From positions 1 through 56,177 of the IMG/VR virus record IMGVR_UViG_3300045988_073633: a stretch of DNA of 56,177 nt. One strand, written 5' to 3'. Of the stretch, positions 13,251-38,149 are shown in pieces. The notes below the pieces were generated by a model, which ran no database searches, was not told where the DNA came from, and saw nothing but the letters and a program-made list of their open reading frames with translations. The DNA comes from a virus. Position numbers and translations under genes: made by a program. Positions within the stretch are counted from its first letter, which is position 1, and each line of letters opens with the position of its first letter.

Positions 13251-13458
13251 TATTTATCACCTCTAATCTTCTGATTTTTTCTTTAATGCACTGAATTCTT
13301 CTCTCCACTGTTCTAAGTGATAAACAAGTTTTAATTGCAATCTCTTTATTTGAAAAACCGCGGAAAAGAAATGTAAAAATCTGTTCTTCTTCCGCGGTAA
13401 AATTGGCGTTTAATCTAATTTCTTCAAGCTCTGGCTTAGTCAGTTTGGATAACTTCAT
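13243..13458 (-). CDS. Sigma-70 region-4/LuxR-type HTH regulator
   Basis: The segment FSNKEIAIKTCLSLRTVERRIQCIKEKI. Confidence 0.5.
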   Translation of the reverse strand: MKLSKLTKPELEEIRLNANFTAEEEQIFTFLFRGFSNKEIAIKTCLSLRTVERRIQCIKEKIRRLEVINNV

Positions 13459-14035
13459 AAGCCGTATTCTCCTTATTTCTACTGTTATGTATACTTTTTA
13501 ATAATATATCATAGTGCTTTTCGCATACTTTATATCCTTTTTTGGCTGTATATCCGCAGAAATAACATTTGCCGTTATAAACCCAGTCCATTTTTCTGTT
13601 TTTGTTTTCTTCTTTGTTTGGAAATCTATGTTTGGACAAATAGTCATTACGTTTAGCTCTGCATATAGAACATACAGTTTTCCCTTCTAAGGATTTCCTT
13701 TTGTGGCAAATTACACACATACCATTTTCTTTGTCTTCATAATATTTTTTCTTTTTTAACTCCTTATTCCTTTCTGCATTTTTCGCATAGTCATATTTTT
13801 TTTCTTTTGTTGAACAAATATGGCATATTTTCTCGTTTAGATATAATTCTCTTTTGTGGCATATAGGGCATATTCTAAGAGATTGATATGCTTTATAATC
13901 TTCTTTAGCCTTATTTGCTCTTTTCTCTTCACAGCAACTACAAAGAGTAAGGCCTTTTCTGCAGTCTTCAATCTCTCCACCACACAATACGCATAATCCT
14001 TTAGATTTTCGGTTATAATAAGTTACGTTCGACAT
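13436..14035 (-). CDS. Multi-zinc-ribbon basic protein (paralogue of 16934..17431)
   Basis: Met-21 follows SD AGGAGG. Repeated CxxC-N-CxxC units, C-terminal GKCYFCG...VCEKHY. Confidence 0.5.
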   Translation of the reverse strand: MSNVTYYNRKSKGLCVLCGGEIEDCRKGLTLCSCCEEKRANKAKEDYKAYQSLRICPICHKRELYLNEKICHICSTKEKKYDYAKNAERNKELKKKKYYEDKENGMCVICHKRKSLEGKTVCSICRAKRNDYLSKHRFPNKEENKNRKMDWVYNGKCYFCGYTAKKGYKVCEKHYDILLKSIHNSRNKENTAYEVIQTD

Positions 14036-26267: not shown

Positions 26268-27325
26268 AATTTTCTCTCACTTTCTAACAATTTTTTTACA
26301 TATAAATCCATCGAGTAACATAGTTTGATACAATTTCCATGTAACGCATGATTTTTCCATGCATTGTATTTTTCATAGAATTTTTTCTCTGTCATTCTTC
26401 CAGACTTGATAAGTTTCACCCACACCGTAATTTTTTTGCGGATTTTTCTTTTATTTACTCCATTTAACTTCCTTATATACTTTCCATCTTTGGTAACGTA
26501 ATGATGAAAACCTGTAAACAACATTCCGTTCTTGAATGGTATAATCTGTGTTTTACCATTAAGCGACAATCCAAGACTTTGTACGAACTGATTTATGCAA
26601 TCAAGACACCATTTTATATATTCCTTACTTGGTGCTATCAGATAAAAGTCGTCCATATATCTTCCATATAGACTTATCCCTAACTCGCCTGTAATAAAAT
26701 GATCTAAGCCATTTAGCATAAGTAAAGCATAAACCTGTGCCACCTGATTACCGAGTGGCAATCCCAAACCATCTGTACTGTCGATAAATAGGTGATTAAG
26801 CCACTTCGTATAATCATCTGCAAAATAGTAATCAACAATATCTTTCAACACTTCATGATCTATCTGATAGAAAAATTTTGTAATATCACATTTTAGAATC
26901 CAACCATTAAGTCCATGTTCTCTGTAAAATTCAAGCATATGTTCTTTCAAAAAATCAATTCCAAAATGCGTACCTTTTCCTATCTGCCCTGCATAGTTAG
27001 TCTTAATAAACTCATCTGCCAACATTGGATGCAAAATATTGTCGCACAAACAATGTTGAACTACCTTATCTTTGAATGAACACGATTTAATCACTCTTTC
27101 CTTTGGTTCGTAAACCTTAAATTCATTGTACGGATTCATCCGGTATGTCTGATTTTCAAGTTGTTCCTTCAAAATATGTAGCCCTTCAAGATCCATTGTC
27201 TGAAATCTTGCACTGCTGCCATTAAATCCTTTGCCGGCTTTAGCCTTTCTATATGCTTTATACAGATTTTCATAACTGCAAATAATATCTTTATCCAATG
27301 TAAAAGCTCCTTTGTATTTACCCAT
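26264..27325 (-). CDS. DGR-type reverse transcriptase
   Basis: 353 aa. YMDD, LGNQVAQ (DGR-type motif 4) and GKGTHFG motifs. Confidence 0.9.
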   Translation of the reverse strand: MGKYKGAFTLDKDIICSYENLYKAYRKAKAGKGFNGSSARFQTMDLEGLHILKEQLENQTYRMNPYNEFKVYEPKERVIKSCSFKDKVVQHCLCDNILHPMLADEFIKTNYAGQIGKGTHFGIDFLKEHMLEFYREHGLNGWILKCDITKFFYQIDHEVLKDIVDYYFADDYTKWLNHLFIDSTDGLGLPLGNQVAQVYALLMLNGLDHFITGELGISLYGRYMDDFYLIAPSKEYIKWCLDCINQFVQSLGLSLNGKTQIIPFKNGMLFTGFHHYVTKDGKYIRKLNGVNKRKIRKKITVWVKLIKSGRMTEKKFYEKYNAWKNHALHGNCIKLCYSMDLYVKKLLESERKL

Positions 27326-32366: not shown

Positions 32367-33070
32367 TCTCTTAACTCCATTCTTAACTGTGCGTTACAAT
32401 CATGCACTTCTTCTTCAAGGATTCTCGGAAGTTCATAGCAATCAATGAAATCGTGAACATCTGCAATGTACTTTCGCTTAATACTCTTATACGTTGAAAC
32501 ACAACCATATTCACGTTTCAACTGATTCCACATGTCAGAGAACACCTTGTTTCTTGTACTTGCATCCTTGTAAGCATTACTCTGCTTTCCGCCAAGGATG
32601 TTTACCGCCTTTCTCTTTACATGAGACTGAATCTCGTCAATCTCGCATCCGTAAAGCGGCATATCGTTCTCAAGCCTGTCCATACGTTCTGACAACTCTG
32701 TATTTCCCTGTGCCAGCAACTTAATCTGCTCTGAGGTTGTCATTGGCTTGTTATATCCTCCGGTCTTTCTGATTGATGGAAGAACCTCGGAGGTAACCCA
32801 ATCTGTAAATCTTTCTGCACTGTCTTTACGGCTCTGAAAGATTGTCTTGTAAAGATTGCTCTCGTTGATATATAAAAGCTTCTGCTCTCCTCCTTTTGTA
32901 AGGGTAGGAATACTATTCACACCCTTTGAGTTCAATCTTTCCTTAACCTTTGATGGTTGTGTAAGCTCTAATGCCCTGCACACATCGCCCAAACAAAACA
33001 TTGGTTCATCATCTTTTGTAATAGTTCGTATTTCTCCAAATTCTGTGTTACTAAAAATCTGTAATTCCAT
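32363..33070 (-). CDS. BRO-N/KilAC-type antirepressor
   Basis: The N-terminus FGEIRTI...PMFCLGDVCRALE...FTDWVTSEVLPSIRKTGGY. Confidence 0.75.
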   Translation of the reverse strand: MELQIFSNTEFGEIRTITKDDEPMFCLGDVCRALELTQPSKVKERLNSKGVNSIPTLTKGGEQKLLYINESNLYKTIFQSRKDSAERFTDWVTSEVLPSIRKTGGYNKPMTTSEQIKLLAQGNTELSERMDRLENDMPLYGCEIDEIQSHVKRKAVNILGGKQSNAYKDASTRNKVFSDMWNQLKREYGCVSTYKSIKRKYIADVHDFIDCYELPRILEEEVHDCNAQLRMELRD

Positions 33071-33134
33071 AAGCGTTCCTTTCTAAATAATTTGTGATAT
33101 AATACCCTTATTCTATTAAGAAAAGAGGTGAAAT

Positions 33135-33326
33135 ATGACTGCCGAAAAATATGTGTCAGCTTACGCTATTGCTAAAATTTGTGGTTATAATGGTTCATAT
33201 GATGATTTTAAAAAACTGTACGACCAATACTATTCAGAAATCATCAGTTCATTACCTACTGAAGAACAACAATTAGCAAAAATAGAAGCGGCTAACAATC
33301 CATTCCGTAACCCGAAGCACTTCTAA
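33135..33326 (+). CDS. Hypothetical protein
   Basis: SD AGAGGTG. Extended -10 (TGATATAAT) at about 33095..33103. Confidence 0.4.
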   Translation: MTAEKYVSAYAIAKICGYNGSYDDFKKLYDQYYSEIISSLPTEEQQLAKIEAANNPFRNPKHF

Positions 33327-33549
33327 ACGCTTCAATTACTGGGGAAATGGCGGTAAGTACTTTGATTGATAGCTCAATGTCAGTTTCTTCAAGTTGCTTA
33401 TCGCCACTCTTAATGTCTTTGTAATCATCAATAATATCCATAGCAATATGCTGTGCAAATTCATCAATGCTTATAAAACGGGAATCTTCTTTCTCGGCAA
33501 TTACGCTTTTCCCATTTTTGTCTGTTATTGTGTATCTTTGTTTTTCCAA
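33292..33549 (-). CDS. Hypothetical protein
   Basis: ORF track. Confidence 0.45.
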   Translation of the reverse strand: MEKQRYTITDKNGKSVIAEKEDSRFISIDEFAQHIAMDIIDDYKDIKSGDKQLEETDIELSIKVLTAISPVIEAFRSASGYGMDC

Positions 33550-33587
33550 TTCTTACTCCTTTCTAAAGTTTAACGCTGTTTAACTTT

Positions 33588-33794
33588 TTAAGCAAAAAAA
33601 TAATCGCCATATTCTGCTAGTTGAATATTAAGTAGTCTACTCCATTCTTCAATATCGTGCTGTGAAAATTCTGTCTTACAATTAAGTTTTCTTGATACCG
33701 AAACCATAGAAATACCCAGTTTACTAGCAAAAGCACTCTGACTGCCGAATACTTCGACTATACGTCCTTTTAACTTGTTATATGTATATGGCAT
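33588..33794 (-). CDS. cro: Cro-like XRE-family HTH regulator
   Basis: 68 aa HTH (SQSAFASKLGISMVSVSRKL), divergent from the repressor gene. Confidence 0.7.
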   Translation of the reverse strand: MPYTYNKLKGRIVEVFGSQSAFASKLGISMVSVSRKLNCKTEFSQHDIEEWSRLLNIQLAEYGDYFFA

Positions 33795-33825
33795 ATATCT
33801 GACCCCCTTTCCTTAAGCTGATTTT

Positions 33826-33914
33826 AGTTTAACACCGTTCAACTCATATGTCAACACAAAAGTTTAATTTTGTTCAACTTTTGTGTTGAAAGTTTAACAT
33901 CATTGTGTTAAAAT
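33826..33914. promoter_or_regulatory. Lysogeny switch: back-to-back promoters with operator repeats
   Basis: Minus strand: TTGACA(33854..33849), 17 nt, TAAACT. Plus strand: TTGAAA(33886), 17 nt, TAAAAT. Operators AGTTTAAyN3GTTyAACT at 33826 and 33861, with a variant at 33891 and a further copy at 33567. A 13-bp inverted repeat TCAACACAAAAGT brackets the middle operator. Confidence 0.6.
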
Positions 33915-33946
33915 ACAGTTATCACAAAAGAAAGGAGAATATACAT

Positions 33947-34294
33947 ATGAAATGCGAAGTCACAGCAAAAAGGTTAAGAAAAGCACTTAATGAATGTGGT
34001 ATGAAGCCACAAGAATTAGCTGATAAAACAGGCATTAGTAAGTCATCAATAAGTCAATACCTTAATGGCTCACACGCTCCGTCTAATATCAGTAGTGGTA
34101 AAATGGGAAAAGTGTTAAATGTAGAACCTTTATGGCTAATGGGATTTGATGTTGAACAACGTAAGACTTTCAATGTTGAACAGGGAGATAAAGATTTTGA
34201 AATATTAGATAAGATTTCTATGTTAGACGAAAGAGATAAACAGATTGTTCTTGATATGATTGAATCTATGATTTCCAGCAAAAATAAGAAGTAG
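33947..34294 (+). CDS. CI-like XRE-family repressor
   Basis: Met-15 of the tracked ORF follows SD AAAGGAG. HTH QELADKTGISKSSISQYLNG. Confidence 0.7.
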   Translation: MKCEVTAKRLRKALNECGMKPQELADKTGISKSSISQYLNGSHAPSNISSGKMGKVLNVEPLWLMGFDVEQRKTFNVEQGDKDFEILDKISMLDERDKQIVLDMIESMISSKNKK

Positions 34295-34298
34295 GGTT

Positions 34299-34412
34299 TT
34301 ACCCCCACTTCTTAACTAATTTCTTTGTGAAAGCGTACAGATATTCTAATATGTCTGTACGCTCTATTTTATTTATAAGCTCTATTAACTTATCTTTGTA
34401 ATTTTCGTTCAT
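34299..34412 (-). CDS. Small protein (37 aa) under a LexA-box promoter; candidate SOS-induced antirepressor
   Basis: SD GGGAGGG 4 nt before the ATG. 38 codons verified by hand. Confidence 0.4.
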   Translation of the reverse strand: MNENYKDKLIELINKIERTDILEYLYAFTKKLVKKWG

Positions 34413-34449
34413 TTTTACCCTCCCAAATTTCTTTTGTAGCGATATTTTC

Positions 34450-34478
34450 ATTATAGAACATACGTTCGATTAAGTCAA
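34450..34478 (-). promoter_or_regulatory. Consensus promoter with a LexA (Cheo) box in the spacer
   Basis: Minus strand reads TTGACT-taatCGAACgtatGTTC-TATAAT. Core GAAC-N4-GTTC at 34456..34467. Confidence 0.6.
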
Positions 34479-34699
34479 TTCCCCTCTTAAACTTGACGAA
34501 CGTAGAAAATAGTGCTACTCTAATATATAGAGAGTGGTGCCAACGCCAATTAACACCACTCTCGCCAGAACTTGATACCGTTATGTTTAACGGTGATTTA
34601 ATCTTATAATATATTGAGGGGGGATTCTATACGATTCGAGAAGAAAAATTAAAAGAATTATCTACAAAACTATCCATAACAAACGATGAGAATAACTAT

Positions 34700-35392
34700 A
34701 TGAGTACATTAAGGCATAATATTGATATATATGTCGATGATAAAGAAATTACATTGAATGATATATCGGAAAAATCTGGTTTATCTGTTTCTACATTATC
34801 CAATGTATTGTATAAAAATTCGAAAGATATACGTCTAGGAACTGCTCTTGCACTTGCTAAGGCATTTGAAATCACTTTAGATGAATTGATTGGTTCTGTT
34901 ACAATGGAGCCAAAAATGAGTGAATCAGTGCGTATGTGCAGGGAACTACCAGAACATAGTATTTATCTAGTTAGGTATTTTATACGGCATCAATATATGA
35001 TATACAATAAAATTAAAACTAATTATATATCTGTATTGATTCCGAGACTAGAGAACGGAATTATGCCAACAACTAATGTAGTAGAACCATTATGTGTGGA
35101 TTTACCAGAGGATATAAAATCTAAGGCATATATAGGGTTAAAGATACCATCAGATAATTATATGCCTTATTACGATGCCGGAGAGATAATTCTTATAGCT
35201 TCTGACCGAGAAGCACAAAGAGGGGAGCATTGTGTTGTAACTAGCAATGGTGGAATTTATATAGTTGAAAAATCAAGAAAAACGTATAAACCACTTACAT
35301 CTCAATACGATATACCAGCTTCTAAAATTGATGATAAAATCGGATATGTTGTAGGTTTTCTTAACAAGGATCTAACGTGGGGAATACGATAA
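34700..35392 (+). CDS. XRE-HTH protein with an S24/LexA-like C-terminal domain (second repressor-like gene)
   Basis: HTH LNDISEKSGLSVSTLSNVL. The C-terminus NYMPYYDAGEIILIA...HCVV is S24-like but lacks the canonical Ser. Confidence 0.55.
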   Translation: MSTLRHNIDIYVDDKEITLNDISEKSGLSVSTLSNVLYKNSKDIRLGTALALAKAFEITLDELIGSVTMEPKMSESVRMCRELPEHSIYLVRYFIRHQYMIYNKIKTNYISVLIPRLENGIMPTTNVVEPLCVDLPEDIKSKAYIGLKIPSDNYMPYYDAGEIILIASDREAQRGEHCVVTSNGGIYIVEKSRKTYKPLTSQYDIPASKIDDKIGYVVGFLNKDLTWGIR

Positions 35393-35405
35393 GGAGGAAA
35401 ACAAT

Positions 35406-36095
35406 ATGAAAGAAAAAAAGGGTTTGGCAATCGCCGGAATGGTATTAGGAATATCATCGGTATTAGTTAGTTGCTGTGGTTGGCTGAGTATAGCATTAGC
35501 AATTATTGGACTTAGTCTGTCTGTAGCTTCTATTCTGATGCATCAGAACAAACCGTTTGCTATAACAGGAATTATAACATCCGGTTTCGCAATTTTAATA
35601 TCAATAATTGTTCTTATTACAGGCGTTACAGCCGGCATGATGGATTCAATTAATAGCAGCAGTGAGACAACAGAAGAAACAGAATACATGACTGAAGAAG
35701 AAACAACAGAGGAAACAACAGAATCAACGGAAATTAGTGAAGAAGATTTTAAGGCACAAGCTATGGAGGTTTCATACGAAGACATATATAGGAATCCAGA
35801 AACGTATAGAGATCAAATAATTAAGATTACCGTTAATGTAGAAGAATACGACACGCAGCTTTTTGGTTTAAATTCGGTATATTATTGTACAATGGACGGA
35901 AATGATTTACTTGTATCCGATAGAAGAACTATAGAAGAACCGACAATAGCACCCGGCGACACAGTTACAATATATGGCAAGGGAAATGGAATGGCAACTT
36001 TAACGGAGGAGCAAAAGGACGAGTTTGGATTCACAACAGATAGCACAAAATCATTAATACCAGACGTATCAATGATATACGTTGAATTAAATTAG
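35406..36095 (+). CDS. Membrane protein with an acidic T/E linker and an extracellular domain (prophage-expressed, possible exclusion factor)
   Basis: Two to three TM helices, then the TEETEYMTEEETTEETTE linker. Confidence 0.5.
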   Translation: MKEKKGLAIAGMVLGISSVLVSCCGWLSIALAIIGLSLSVASILMHQNKPFAITGIITSGFAILISIIVLITGVTAGMMDSINSSSETTEETEYMTEEETTEETTESTEISEEDFKAQAMEVSYEDIYRNPETYRDQIIKITVNVEEYDTQLFGLNSVYYCTMDGNDLLVSDRRTIEEPTIAPGDTVTIYGKGNGMATLTEEQKDEFGFTTDSTKSLIPDVSMIYVELN

Positions 36096-36100
36096 TTTTT

Positions 36101-36135
36101 AGGGGTAAGATCAATAAATCTTACCCCTATATTTT
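36101..36135 (+). terminator. Intrinsic terminator
   Basis: AGGGGTAAGA-loop-TCTTACCCCT followed by ATATTTTT. Confidence 0.65.
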
Positions 36136-36136
36136 T

Positions 36137-37159
36137 CTATTGGACGTACATCTGGAATTTGGTTATTGGATGTCCAAACAATCCGGCATATCCGTCCTGT
36201 CCATTGGATATCTGGTTGTTATGCTGCCATTCAAAATAAATGTTTCTGTCTGATGCCTGGACCCGGTACACAGCAACAGATCCATCGACTACAATTTCCA
36301 CAGCATCAATAGCGTTTCTTAAATCCCCGGCAAATCCATTTTTGATATCGTTCAGATCGTATCCATCAATGTAAGGATACCATTTCCCTTTAATTGTATG
36401 AACTCTTACCCGTACGTGCTTACCGGGTACCTTCACAGCGATCGCTTTTATAGCTCTACCGGCCCAGCCGGCATAATCTTCTAGGTTCTTTACCGGTGGC
36501 AGCCAACGATCGGTATAGACCTGATAAAGTGCATCACTTGCCGCAGGAACAATTGGCTGCGCTGTCGCATATTCCTTATAGAACTCACTGATATCAACAT
36601 TTCCCTGCACACCATTAATAGATCCAGTTGAAGTGTACTGCCATCCGACTTTTACACCTTCATAGGTACATACATCATTGTACTGTGCTACCCACTTATC
36701 CCACTGTCCGAATCGCGGATCTGTCAGTTTATTTGTAAACCAGTACTTATTCGCATAGATTCCGACCGGATATCCGGCATTCTGAAGTGCCTTGCAAAAG
36801 ATCTCCGCCATATCTCCTAACAGATCCGGACTACTCTTTCCGGTTGTATTTTCATCCTCCATATCGTAGAAGATGGGCAGATCTAAGGATATACCTTGAA
36901 GCAGACGAATCGCATGTGCTGCTTCTGACTGTGCATGTGCGACAGAATCTGCATAACTGTATAGATACGCCCCTACCTTTAATCCGGCTTCTTTTGATCC
37001 ATTTACATTCTGATTCCAAAATGGATCATCTTGTGACAACACATCATCTCCAAATCCGCAGCGAATTATTGCAGCTTCAATCCCAGATTCCTTAACGGAC
37101 TTCCAGTCAATGTTTCCGTTGTGCTTACTCACATCAATAACTTTATACATTTTTACCAC
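36137..37159 (-). CDS. Endolysin, GH25 muramidase with a C-terminal wall-binding region
   Basis: VIDVSKHNG.IDW...AAIIRCG...GAYLYSY...FYDMED. Confidence 0.8.
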   Translation of the reverse strand: MVKMYKVIDVSKHNGNIDWKSVKESGIEAAIIRCGFGDDVLSQDDPFWNQNVNGSKEAGLKVGAYLYSYADSVAHAQSEAAHAIRLLQGISLDLPIFYDMEDENTTGKSSPDLLGDMAEIFCKALQNAGYPVGIYANKYWFTNKLTDPRFGQWDKWVAQYNDVCTYEGVKVGWQYTSTGSINGVQGNVDISEFYKEYATAQPIVPAASDALYQVYTDRWLPPVKNLEDYAGWAGRAIKAIAVKVPGKHVRVRVHTIKGKWYPYIDGYDLNDIKNGFAGDLRNAIDAVEIVVDGSVAVYRVQASDRNIYFEWQHNNQISNGQDGYAGLFGHPITKFQMYVQ

Positions 37160-37165
37160 TCCTTT

Positions 37166-38149
37166 TTAAGCGACCTTTTTATGGTCGATTTTTACATTGT
37201 CTTCATCAACACTACAATATAGCATTGTTGTATCTAAGCTCGAATGTCCTAGTATTGCCTGTAAGTGTTGTATTTTCATTCCCTTATTAAGGGCATTAGT
37301 AGCAAAGGTTCTACGGAACCTATGCGGATGCACATTGTTTATTCCTGTTATTTCAGATATCTTTTTTAACATTTTTTCTATTGATTGTTTGCTTAATCTT
37401 TCTCCAAATCTGTTGACAAAAAGTGATTCGTTACAATCTGTTCGTTCTTTTAAGTATTCTCCAATATAGTACAATGCCTTATCAGAAATATATACTTTCC
37501 TTTCTTTGCTTCCTTTTCCAAACACAATCGCTTCACCACGAATCATATCTATATCGTTCCAATTAAGATTAACAATTTCACTTACCCTGCACCCGGTTGT
37601 AAGCATAAATTCAATAATAGCTCTGTCTCTTTTATTCCATGTGGAATTTTTAATTCGTTCAATTTCATTGTCATTAAATGGTTTTCTGAAAACCTTTTCT
37701 GTTTTTATCTTCTTGATCCGTAGCATTGGATTTTTCTCGATATATTCTTCTCTTGTAAGCCATGCAAAAAAAGACGATAGATTTCTCCTTTTGTTGTCTA
37801 TTGTGCTTTTAGACACCTTTCTATTTTGCTGATACATTGCCAAGTGATATCGTATATCATTTGTAACCATGTCTTCTACTCTTTTGTCCACATCTAAAAA
37901 TAGAAGATTAATTGCTAATTCATATTGATCTAATGTTTGCTCCGACTTACCTTCTAATCTTAAAGATGCTATAAACTTCTTTTTCAATCTTTCATTGCTG
38001 TTATCATAAAATCCAACTTCATGTGATTTCTGCTCTACATGATATGATTGAAATAACACTGTTAGTGCATCTCCTAATTTTTCCATCTGCTCCTTGCTCA
38101 ATTCTTCTGACATCATTAGCAATAATTCACTTCTTAATCTTTCCTCCAT
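37166..38149 (-). CDS. XerC/XerD-like tyrosine recombinase (second recombinase)
   Basis: RVSEI...HPHRFRRTFAT...LGHSSLDTTMLY catalytic pattern. Lies between the tail fibre and the endolysin. Confidence 0.8.
   Translation of the reverse strand: MEERLRSELLLMMSEELSKEQMEKLGDALTVLFQSYHVEQKSHEVGFYDNSNERLKKKFIASLRLEGKSEQTLDQYELAINLLFLDVDKRVEDMVTNDIRYHLAMYQQNRKVSKSTIDNKRRNLSSFFAWLTREEYIEKNPMLRIKKIKTEKVFRKPFNDNEIERIKNSTWNKRDRAIIEFMLTTGCRVSEIVNLNWNDIDMIRGEAIVFGKGSKERKVYISDKALYYIGEYLKERTDCNESLFVNRFGERLSKQSIEKMLKKISEITGINNVHPHRFRRTFATNALNKGMKIQHLQAILGHSSLDTTMLYCSVDEDNVKIDHKKVA

Follow-up and report, generated by a model that had tools for sequence, protein, structure and literature searches.

Introduction

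How would a temperate phage sense damage to the DNA of its host when neither of its repressor-like proteins seems to carry an intact site for self-cleavage? This question is raised by the immunity region of IMG/VR virus record IMGVR_UViG_3300045988_073633, which we analyzed over positions 1 to 56,177 (the whole stretch of 56,177 nucleotides is called the window below). The window is a temperate siphovirus-like phage genome with most of its genes on the minus strand. Between the gene of a 115-amino-acid (aa) XRE-family repressor and a 230-aa helix-turn-helix (HTH) gene there is an open reading frame (ORF) for a protein of only 37 aa, preceded by a promoter with an embedded LexA box. An earlier sequence-only reading had proposed that this is an induction module gated by the host SOS response that acts through a small antirepressor and/or an antisense RNA. 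Comparative evidence supports the antirepressor part of this proposal and speaks against the part that involves read-through antisense transcription. Thus, in our judgment the module is probably a LexA-gated mini-antirepressor of a temperate Lachnospiraceae phage, a helical hairpin that would bind the C-terminal dimerisation hairpin of the repressor. The small protein belongs to a previously undescribed and very large family from gut Lachnospiraceae phages that resembles already known LexA-gated induction switches.

The promoter of the small gene encloses a LexA box

A sigma-A type promoter, here called P_sos, reads TTGACT-17-TATAAT at 34478..34450 on the minus strand, as the sequence-only reading had stated. 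It is an 11/12 match, its -35 and -10 hexamers are conserved in relatives and it is the top promoter-like site of the region 33000-36200. The GAAC-N4-GTTC core that had been described in its spacer is likewise present, as CGAACGTATGTTC at 34468..34456 on the minus strand. The full 14-mer, CGAACGTATGTTCT at 34455..34468, is a near-perfect 14-bp palindrome of the Cheo/DinR type that matches the Firmicute LexA consensus CGAACATATGTTCG at 12/14 positions. It occupies the spacer and shares the first T of the -10 hexamer, and thus overlaps core promoter elements of the small gene. GAAC-N4-GTTC is the LexA operator in Bacillus and, with either GTTC or GTTT as its second half, in Clostridia (PMC4234289). 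The exact core occurs once in the 56-kb window, and the P_sos box is also the single site in the window that is within 2 mismatches of the Bacillus consensus. Simulated sequence of the same composition contains ~4 promoters of such quality and ~0.5 boxes per window, from which we estimate that a box inside the spacer of such a promoter would arise at ~2e-4 per window. The conservation in relatives described below is what decides against chance.

The elements downstream of the box are conserved as well. The motif TATCGCTAC lies at the transcript start (34436..34444, minus strand), 4-7 nt 3' of the -10 hexamer, and in the form TATCGCTA(C/T) it is found at this distance in almost all box-bearing promoters, the group of contig L096, which has a half-box, being without it. 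It is followed by the Shine-Dalgarno (SD) sequence GGGAGGG at 34424..34418 (minus strand), 5 nt 5' of the ATG at 34412, so that the reported order of SD and 37-aa ORF is correct. A G-rich SD occurs at identical spacing in all relatives.

Three other sites deserve mention. The half-site CGAACGTA at 34496 was considered as a second LexA site and rejected, as it is not conserved and relatives have TTGACGCACG instead; it constitutes the -35 region of the promoter of the 230-aa gene. An inverted repeat around the promoter (34436-34449 / 34505-34518) has no counterpart in other lineages. Finally, CAAGCATATGTTCT at 26932-26945 inside a 353-aa gene is the same sequence as the half-degenerate box of the L096 group and is probably a coincidence.

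The small ORF is a gene of a large and hypervariable family

The putative antirepressor gene (34412..34299 on the minus strand, stop codon 34301..34299) encodes the 37-aa protein MNENYKDKLIELINKIERTDILEYLYAFTKKLVKKWG. For comparison, 80 viral contigs (L001-L080) were collected that encode a homologue of the 230-aa protein with 54-57% identity. Behind the conserved promoter these contigs turn mosaic exactly at the start codon, and 19 different small ORFs of 35-48 aa stand behind the same promoter in these contigs, with the common pattern (E)EY(K/R)xxIxxxIxxI(E/N/D)xxxxLxY(I/L)(Y/H)xF. A longer ORF of 50 aa (ATG 34451) was rejected as the true start, as it would begin inside the -10 hexamer and relatives start at the position of 34412.

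Evidence that the ORF is translated comes from its variation. The annotated frame is open in 28/28 distinct variants, while each of the other five frames is stopped in 23-28 of them. The pooled ratio of nonsynonymous to synonymous polymorphism (pN/pS) is 0.37 in the annotated frame versus 0.98 and 1.14 in the two alternative frames of that strand, and the corresponding pairwise substitution ratio (dN/dS) is 0.05-0.27 for most pairs of small ORFs. The small ORF is a protein-coding gene, and purifying selection on it is restricted to its own frame.

Additional searches indicate that the family is very large. A profile search retrieved 182 family clusters at 90% identity, all of them unnamed or "hypothetical" and none with a Pfam domain, and an exhaustive search raised the number to 848 clusters at 50% identity. 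Members are hypervariable, with a median identity of 28%. The link between promoter and gene was also approached from the DNA side with a cassette search of viral contigs that did not use the protein. The pattern, GAAC-N4-GTTCTATAAT-N4-7-ATCGCTA, was anchored on the TATCGCTAC motif and returned at least 120 contigs. In 117/120 of these contigs the nearest downstream ORF with an SD encodes 33-52 aa, and 61/62 distinct ORF sequences match the hidden Markov model of the family. The cassette is therefore dedicated to this small-gene family. AlphaFold2 models the 37-aa protein as a two-helix hairpin (residues 4-15 and 19-36) with a predicted local distance difference test score (pLDDT) of 90.5. A BLAST comparison of positions 33500-35500 with GenBank phages gave no match, and a search of a literature library for this module in Lachnospiraceae found no description of it.

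The small protein tracks the repressor that it faces

The stop codon of the small ORF is separated by 4-5 nt from that of the convergent repressor gene (33947..34294, plus strand), in agreement with the 5 nt first noted. This 115-aa protein, which we propose as the target, matches HTH_3 as its only Pfam domain, and its AlphaFold2 model (pLDDT 91.3) comprises a five-helix HTH domain (residues 4-64) that is joined by a linker of lower confidence (65-76) to a helical hairpin (77-114, with helices 77-91 and 95-114). Neither Pfam nor the model contains an S24 domain. In a profile search against the PDB its N-terminal domain is homologous to that of the TP901-1 CI repressor (6tri, E 2e-8; 5a7l, E 7e-8). 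Foldseek aligns the model over its full length with SinR/SinI (1B0N, rank 2) and also with TP901-1 CI (5a7l, root-mean-square deviation 1.8) and with AimC (9IAQ), where the template modelling score of ~0.53 is modest. The 230-aa protein contains an HTH and a sub-threshold match to Peptidase_S24 (E 0.011; 15.9 bits versus a cut-off of 23.3). The earlier statement that neither phage repressor has an intact S24 site fits these results. By eye, the position of the catalytic serine in the C-terminal half of the 230-aa protein (35000-35392) reads SDNYMP, and this half is probably a degenerate, non-cleaving S24-like domain.

Several observations associate the small protein with the convergent repressor. 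Family members are located tail to tail with a 100-135-aa XRE protein, apart from a few types that have a 250-aa partner or 1-2 genes in between. Identity among small proteins correlates with identity among the convergent repressors (Spearman rho 0.75). Repressors that differ in their HTH domain and are similar in their C-terminal tail go with similar small proteins, as seen for L025 compared with the window and for L003 compared with L004. Furthermore, among repressors that are 66-72% identical to the window HTH and have a canonical S24 domain (AG/CG site, GDSMxP, KR), 0/9 are accompanied by the small ORF, while all short-tailed repressors of the window's clade have it. Three apparent exceptions are disrupted or differently started: in L085 the start codon is mutated, L112 starts at TTG, and L124 (IMG isolate genome 643886116) has its small ORF split by a frameshift in an A7 homopolymer. 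This mutual exclusion indicates that autocleavage in cis and a LexA-controlled small gene in trans are alternative routes for the SOS signal. Judged by these sequence comparisons, the likely target of the 37-aa protein is the repressor at 33947 and not the protein encoded at 34700.

In L124, removal of one A restores a perfect family member, so the tract represents either an assembly error or a phase-variable site; two LexA boxes are found upstream of it.

A competing interpretation accepts a real and LexA-controlled small protein and assigns it another target, such as host LexA or RecA or the 230-aa HTH/S24-like protein, or a function outside of the switch. We regard this as unlikely, if not negligible. 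The contact between small protein and repressor is proposed on comparative grounds, the 230-aa gene is the divergent neighbor in the window's lineage, and small phage proteins that bind LexA are known, for example GIL01 gp7 (PMC4551915). However, a host target would predict conservation and not the hypervariability that is observed, and the 230-aa homologues are ~95% identical among themselves as opposed to ~28% among the small proteins, with no correlation between the two (rho -0.02). The module also occurs where the 230-aa gene is absent. The stop-to-stop pairing, the co-variation with the convergent repressor and the exclusion from S24-type repressors likewise favor the repressor as the target.

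The small-gene transcript has its own terminator

The sequence-only reading had argued that the small-gene transcript extends into the repressor gene, finding no U-rich terminator on this strand. This point has to be revised. An intrinsic terminator, T1, is present on the minus strand, with a hairpin at 34314..34285 (a 12-bp G+C-rich stem) and a U tract at 34284..34278 that reads UUAUUUUUGCUGG (UUUUUG). Its free energy is -19.8 kcal/mol (z = -4.5 versus shuffles), and the hairpin itself encodes the residues KKWG and the stop codon of the small ORF. A same-strand terminator like T1 is found at the end of 33/42 distinct family ORFs. As T1 lies at the stop codon of the ORF, the ~165-nt transcript should end there and should not cross the repressor gene.

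A second terminator-like hairpin, T2, is located on the plus strand at 34332..34376 (stem 34332-34363, with a T-rich tail) within the small-gene codons IERTDILEYLYA. Its stem co-varies in relatives, for example GCAGGTAC..GTACCTGC and GCAGATAC..GTATCTGC, with a G.U pair that forms on the plus strand only. T2 is probably the terminator of the repressor mRNA, and with such an end the two RNAs would share up to ~95 nt at their 3' ends. The small-gene transcript is highly structured (z -7.4), and Rfam returns a sub-threshold match to STnc400 (30 bits versus 80) that is due to the two hairpins T1 and T2.

It could be argued from this arrangement that a LexA-controlled RNA acts on the repressor gene as a cis-antisense RNA or by transcriptional interference, with the ORF being incidental or secondary. 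The convergent genes with closely abutting stops, the location of T2 inside of the small ORF with its possible 3' overlap, and the strong structure of the transcript are all compatible with such a role. Nevertheless, T1 halts the transcript at the end of the ORF and has an equivalent in most variants, and selection is specific to a frame that is always open and has a strong SD. In the analogous Bacillus system, a recoded aimX allele worked and a stop-codon allele failed, which excluded an antisense role for aimX (10.1101/2025.11.23.689978). We therefore consider an action through RNA quite improbable as the principal mechanism.

Conservation of the box points to a host factor

Which protein reads the box can be addressed by asking where the box is kept. 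At the same place as in the window, 78/80 of the contigs collected through the 230-aa homologue have AGAACATA[T/C]GTTCT within TTGATT-17-TATAAT. The box in relatives reads AGAACATATGTTCT, and AGAAC-N4-GTTCT with a variable center is also found at this position in further loci. A second set of contigs, collected through the 115-aa repressor, has a lysin, a lipoprotein or another gene upstream, yet despite their differing flanks these contigs retain TTGACA-N4-AGAAC-N4-GTTCTATAAT. The four central bases of their boxes vary (GTGT, AGAT, AAAT, ATAC, GTAT or ATAT). Overall, at least 7 lineages whose flanks are unrelated share TTGAYW-N4-[A/C]GAAC-N4-GTTCTATAAT, and the box is identical over at least 10 immunity types whose repressor HTH sequences are unrelated. 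As the box is kept where the 230-aa gene is absent, it is not an operator of the 230-aa protein, and as it does not change over unrelated repressor HTH types, it is not an operator of the convergent repressor either. Its reader is therefore a factor common to all of the hosts. Genomes with relatives of the module belong to Lachnospiraceae, namely Lachnospira, Blautia, Eubacterium and Tyzzerella, and the LexA protein of Eubacterium rectale has a solved structure that appears among our Foldseek matches (rank 46). From motif and position we infer that host LexA binds CGAACGTATGTTCT and that transcription of the small gene is inducible by damage.

That the palindrome is instead the operator of a phage regulator, either the 230-aa HTH protein or the 115-aa repressor, would fit a near-perfect 14-bp palindrome located beside the 230-aa HTH gene, as in the window and in L001-L080. 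We hold this to be very unlikely given the retention of the box without the 230-aa gene, its constancy over many unrelated repressor types, its dissimilarity to the operator-like repeats of the switch region and its match to the Firmicute LexA consensus. It is scarcely credible that a chance ORF and a chance motif came together in the intergenic stretch 3' of the repressor gene. The ORF is indeed short and overlaps two terminator hairpins that would themselves conserve the DNA, but the selection on its frame, the size of its family and the link from cassette to ORF, found without use of the protein, all argue otherwise.

A model for induction

The switch region extends over 33826..33914 with divergent promoters and operator-like repeats. 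The plus-strand promoter (33886-33914) serves the repressor, the minus-strand promoter (33854-33826) serves a cro-like gene, and three repeats of the form AGTTTAAC..GTTCAAC are located at 33826, 33861 and 33891. The cro-like gene (33794..33588, minus strand; 68 aa) encodes a DUF739 protein (Pfam E 7e-14) and is the first lytic gene, heading an early lytic operon that is presumed to be the output of derepression. Inside of the repressor coding region, at 34149-34182, there are also two copies of ATGTTGAACA, which are inverted copies of the GTTCAAC repeats at 33826-33904 and may form a distal operator.

We propose that in the lysogen a host LexA dimer would sit on CGAACGTATGTTCT and keep the near-consensus promoter silent, given that the box takes up the spacer and reaches into the -10 hexamer. 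The 115-aa XRE repressor, which has a promoter of its own, would keep the divergent cro-like early promoter shut. Upon DNA damage, active RecA would promote the self-cleavage of LexA and the ~165-nt small-gene transcript would be made, ending at T1. The 37-aa hairpin would then replace the partner subunit on the C-terminal hairpin of its cognate repressor, which we take as the dimerisation domain. A repressor that cannot oligomerise would leave its operators at 33826-33904, and the cro-like early lytic operon would fire.

A number of points weigh against this model. The module is known from sequence comparison and predicted folds, from which LexA binding, inducibility and the protein contact are all deduced. 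For LexA binding, the evidence is a motif and its position, and the motifs used for comparison are published ones from Bacillus and Clostridia. Among 43 distinct family members sampled via the repressor, 28 have a full box, 2 have a box with one mismatch and 13 have none, where the 13 include the L096 group with its half-degenerate box CAAGCATATGTTCT. About a third of sampled members are thus boxless or degenerate, so that LexA control is common and not obligatory. Conservation of the ORF sequence is partly confounded by the two embedded terminator hairpins, as constraints at the DNA and protein levels overlap in a coding sequence that also carries T1 and T2. The 3' overlap of the two RNAs may make a minor contribution of its own. 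Co-variation of adjacent genes is partly expected from linkage alone. Finally, the 37-aa protein has no match in Pfam or PHROGs and no detectable sequence homology to a characterised antirepressor family, and the idea that it is a SinI-like copy of the repressor's C-terminal hairpin was rejected on sequence grounds, with an hhalign probability of 1%.

Boxless members such as L155/L156, L158/L159, L092, L116/L162 and L144-L146 differ in what precedes the small gene. Some have repeated ATTGTAAAAT motifs upstream, others have an XRE gene and a terminator directly upstream on the same strand, an arrangement that recalls transcription-factor/small-ORF modules, and in L144-L146 the prophage ends ~190 bp upstream of the small gene.

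Comparison with known systems

The closest known system is the AimX-AimC-AimL "extended arbitrium" module described in a 2025 preprint, which by analogy would occur here without arbitrium. In the Bacillus phages phi106 and phiW23, a LexA site controls AimX (29-80 aa), which is convergent with and overlaps the gene of the short XRE repressor AimC (10.1101/2025.11.23.689978). AimC is non-cleavable, is divergent from the cro-like AimL and has a known structure (PDB 9IAQ; Kabel et al., 10.1101/2025.11.23.689978). AimX binds the C-terminal oligomerisation domain of AimC and thereby blocks DNA binding, and AimX proteins are hypervariable and co-vary with AimC (10.1101/2025.11.23.689978). According to the same authors there are few AimC/AimL homologues outside of arbitrium systems (10.1101/2025.11.23.689978).

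The two modules share a LexA site directly upstream of a tiny ORF. In both, this ORF converges on the gene of a single-HTH repressor, abutting its 3' end, and the repressor is short (80-140 aa) and lacks a cleavage domain. As with AimC, the gene of the window repressor diverges from a cro-like gene at the head of the early operon, and the protein is modeled as an HTH, a linker and a helical C-terminal domain. As with AimX, the small proteins are predicted to be helical, are hypervariable and co-vary with the repressor. In contrast to extended arbitrium, there is no aimR/aimP, TPR (tetratricopeptide repeat) receptor or peptide gene upstream of the window small ORF, where a structured RNA-like element and the divergent 230-aa HTH gene are found instead, and LexA is the only evident input. 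The hosts also differ, being Clostridia (Lachnospiraceae) here. At the sequence level, no homology beyond the generic HTH is detectable for the window repressor, whose profile did not retrieve 9IAQ from the PDB at E<=0.01.

The sequence-only reading had likened the logic of the module to that of Tum in coliphage 186, and this fits a repressor that has no S24 domain. Tum is reportedly a LexA-controlled antirepressor of ~146 aa. The Gifsy antirepressors are also LexA-controlled (PMC3121763). In both cases a non-cleavable repressor is combined with a LexA-repressed antirepressor gene through which the SOS signal enters, with cognate specificity. However, the Tum and Gifsy proteins are unrelated to the window protein and larger, their box is of the E. 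coli type (CTGT-N8-ACAG), and their genes are not tail to tail with the repressor gene. Among Firmicute phages, Sar of SPbeta/phi3T is a small LexA-controlled antirepressor of the repressor SroF (10.1101/2025.11.27.690993). It resembles the window protein in being a small antirepressor with cognate specificity behind a Bacillus-type SOS box. It differs in that Sar acts as a mimic of DNA on a monomeric DNA-binding repressor, SroF, whose fold is integrase-like, and the genomic layout is another one (10.1101/2025.11.27.690993).

For the protein contact itself, further parallels come from other settings. In B. subtilis, the XRE HTH repressor SinR ends in a two-helix domain on which the small helical antagonist SinI replaces a partner subunit and so inactivates SinR (1B0N), as we propose for the window proteins. 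SinI is homologous to the SinR C-terminus, unlike the window small protein, which shows no homology to the repressor tail and has no SinI Pfam domain, and SinR/SinI is neither phage-encoded nor LexA-controlled. The TP901-1 switch has a CI protein with a homologous N-terminal domain, including the WLMGFDV motif, and there too a non-cleavable repressor is countered by a small protein, MOR. MOR is the first lytic gene product and binds the CI N-terminal domain, whereas the window small gene has a LexA promoter and tracks the C-terminal tail. Transcription-factor/small-ORF (TF-smORF) modules and Qtip of Vibrio phages are similar in that small proteins inactivate cI and that sensory inputs are exchangeable (PMC10432266), and in some members of the window family a different regulator is found upstream where the LexA box would be. 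The Vibrio systems differ from the window in being SOS-independent and in having a cleavable cI and unrelated proteins of ~50-80 aa (PMC10432266).

Wider implications

These comparisons suggest a broader reading with several parts, towards which, taking all parts jointly, we lean only slightly. First, the 33-52-aa family of at least 848 clusters and its convergent short XRE repressor would be an exchangeable immunity cassette of Lachnospiraceae gut phages. Second, one and the same HTH domain would alternate in evolution between two means of sensing the SOS response, namely S24 autocleavage in cis and, in trans, a LexA-gated mini-antirepressor directed against a helical tail for dimerisation. 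Third, some cassettes would have exchanged the LexA promoter for other sensory inputs. Fourth, the module would be a relative of the Bacillus AimX-AimC switch, or its ancestor, that does without arbitrium.

Were this reading correct, it would explain how prophages of Lachnospiraceae, a dominant family of the human gut, are induced when antibiotics, genotoxins or inflammation damage DNA, and would do so for a widespread prophage group whose repressors are unable to cleave themselves. Antirepression of the AimX-AimC type would extend beyond Bacillus and beyond arbitrium signaling. Such switches would be recognizable by a sequence signature consisting of a LexA-box promoter, a 33-52-aa ORF and a short XRE repressor gene located tail to tail with it. 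Additionally, dozens of natural co-varying repressor/antirepressor pairs would become available for studies of specificity or as orthogonal genetic switches.

Neighboring genes and a structured element

Beyond the small ORF and its promoter on the minus strand, the gene order continues with a structured element (34520-34602), the plus-strand genes for the 230-aa HTH protein and a 229-aa membrane protein, and then a GH25 lysin and a tyrosine recombinase that are both on the minus strand. The XerC/D-like recombinase (37166-38149, minus strand) sits between tail-fiber genes and the lysin and not next to the repressor. In relatives such as L081, the interval from the lysin to the immunity region contains no integrase.

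The start of the 230-aa HTH gene probably lies 5' of the listed ATG at 34700. Its frame contains no stop from 34610 onwards, and GAGGGGGG at 34616-34623 is a strong SD. The translated sequence IREEKLKELSTKL aligns with the N-terminus of relatives, MMKKDRIKEISTHL, which implies that translation starts at an ATT (34634) or that the start codon has been lost.

The RNA-like element at 34520-34602 immediately precedes the LexA promoter and shares its strand (minus); for the window this means an orientation antisense to the 230-aa HTH gene leader. It is found in 114/177 loci, among them L081, L084, L096 and L009, and has no match in Rfam. The element combines a hairpin that varies, a single-stranded (A/C)TCAAGTTCTGGC that does not, and a second hairpin whose loop contains ATTGGCG. 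This second hairpin exhibits compensatory changes in 9/11 pairs, with G.U pairs that form only in this orientation. Some lineages have a TTGAxx-17-TATAAT promoter before the element and a T tract after it. A weak and rearranged second copy may exist at 13359-13461 on the plus strand, where ATTGGCGTTT and then CTTCAAGCTCTGGC follow a CCGCGGAA..TTCCGCGG hairpin; its covariance-model E-value is only 0.5, and it resembles the second copies in L028 and L030.

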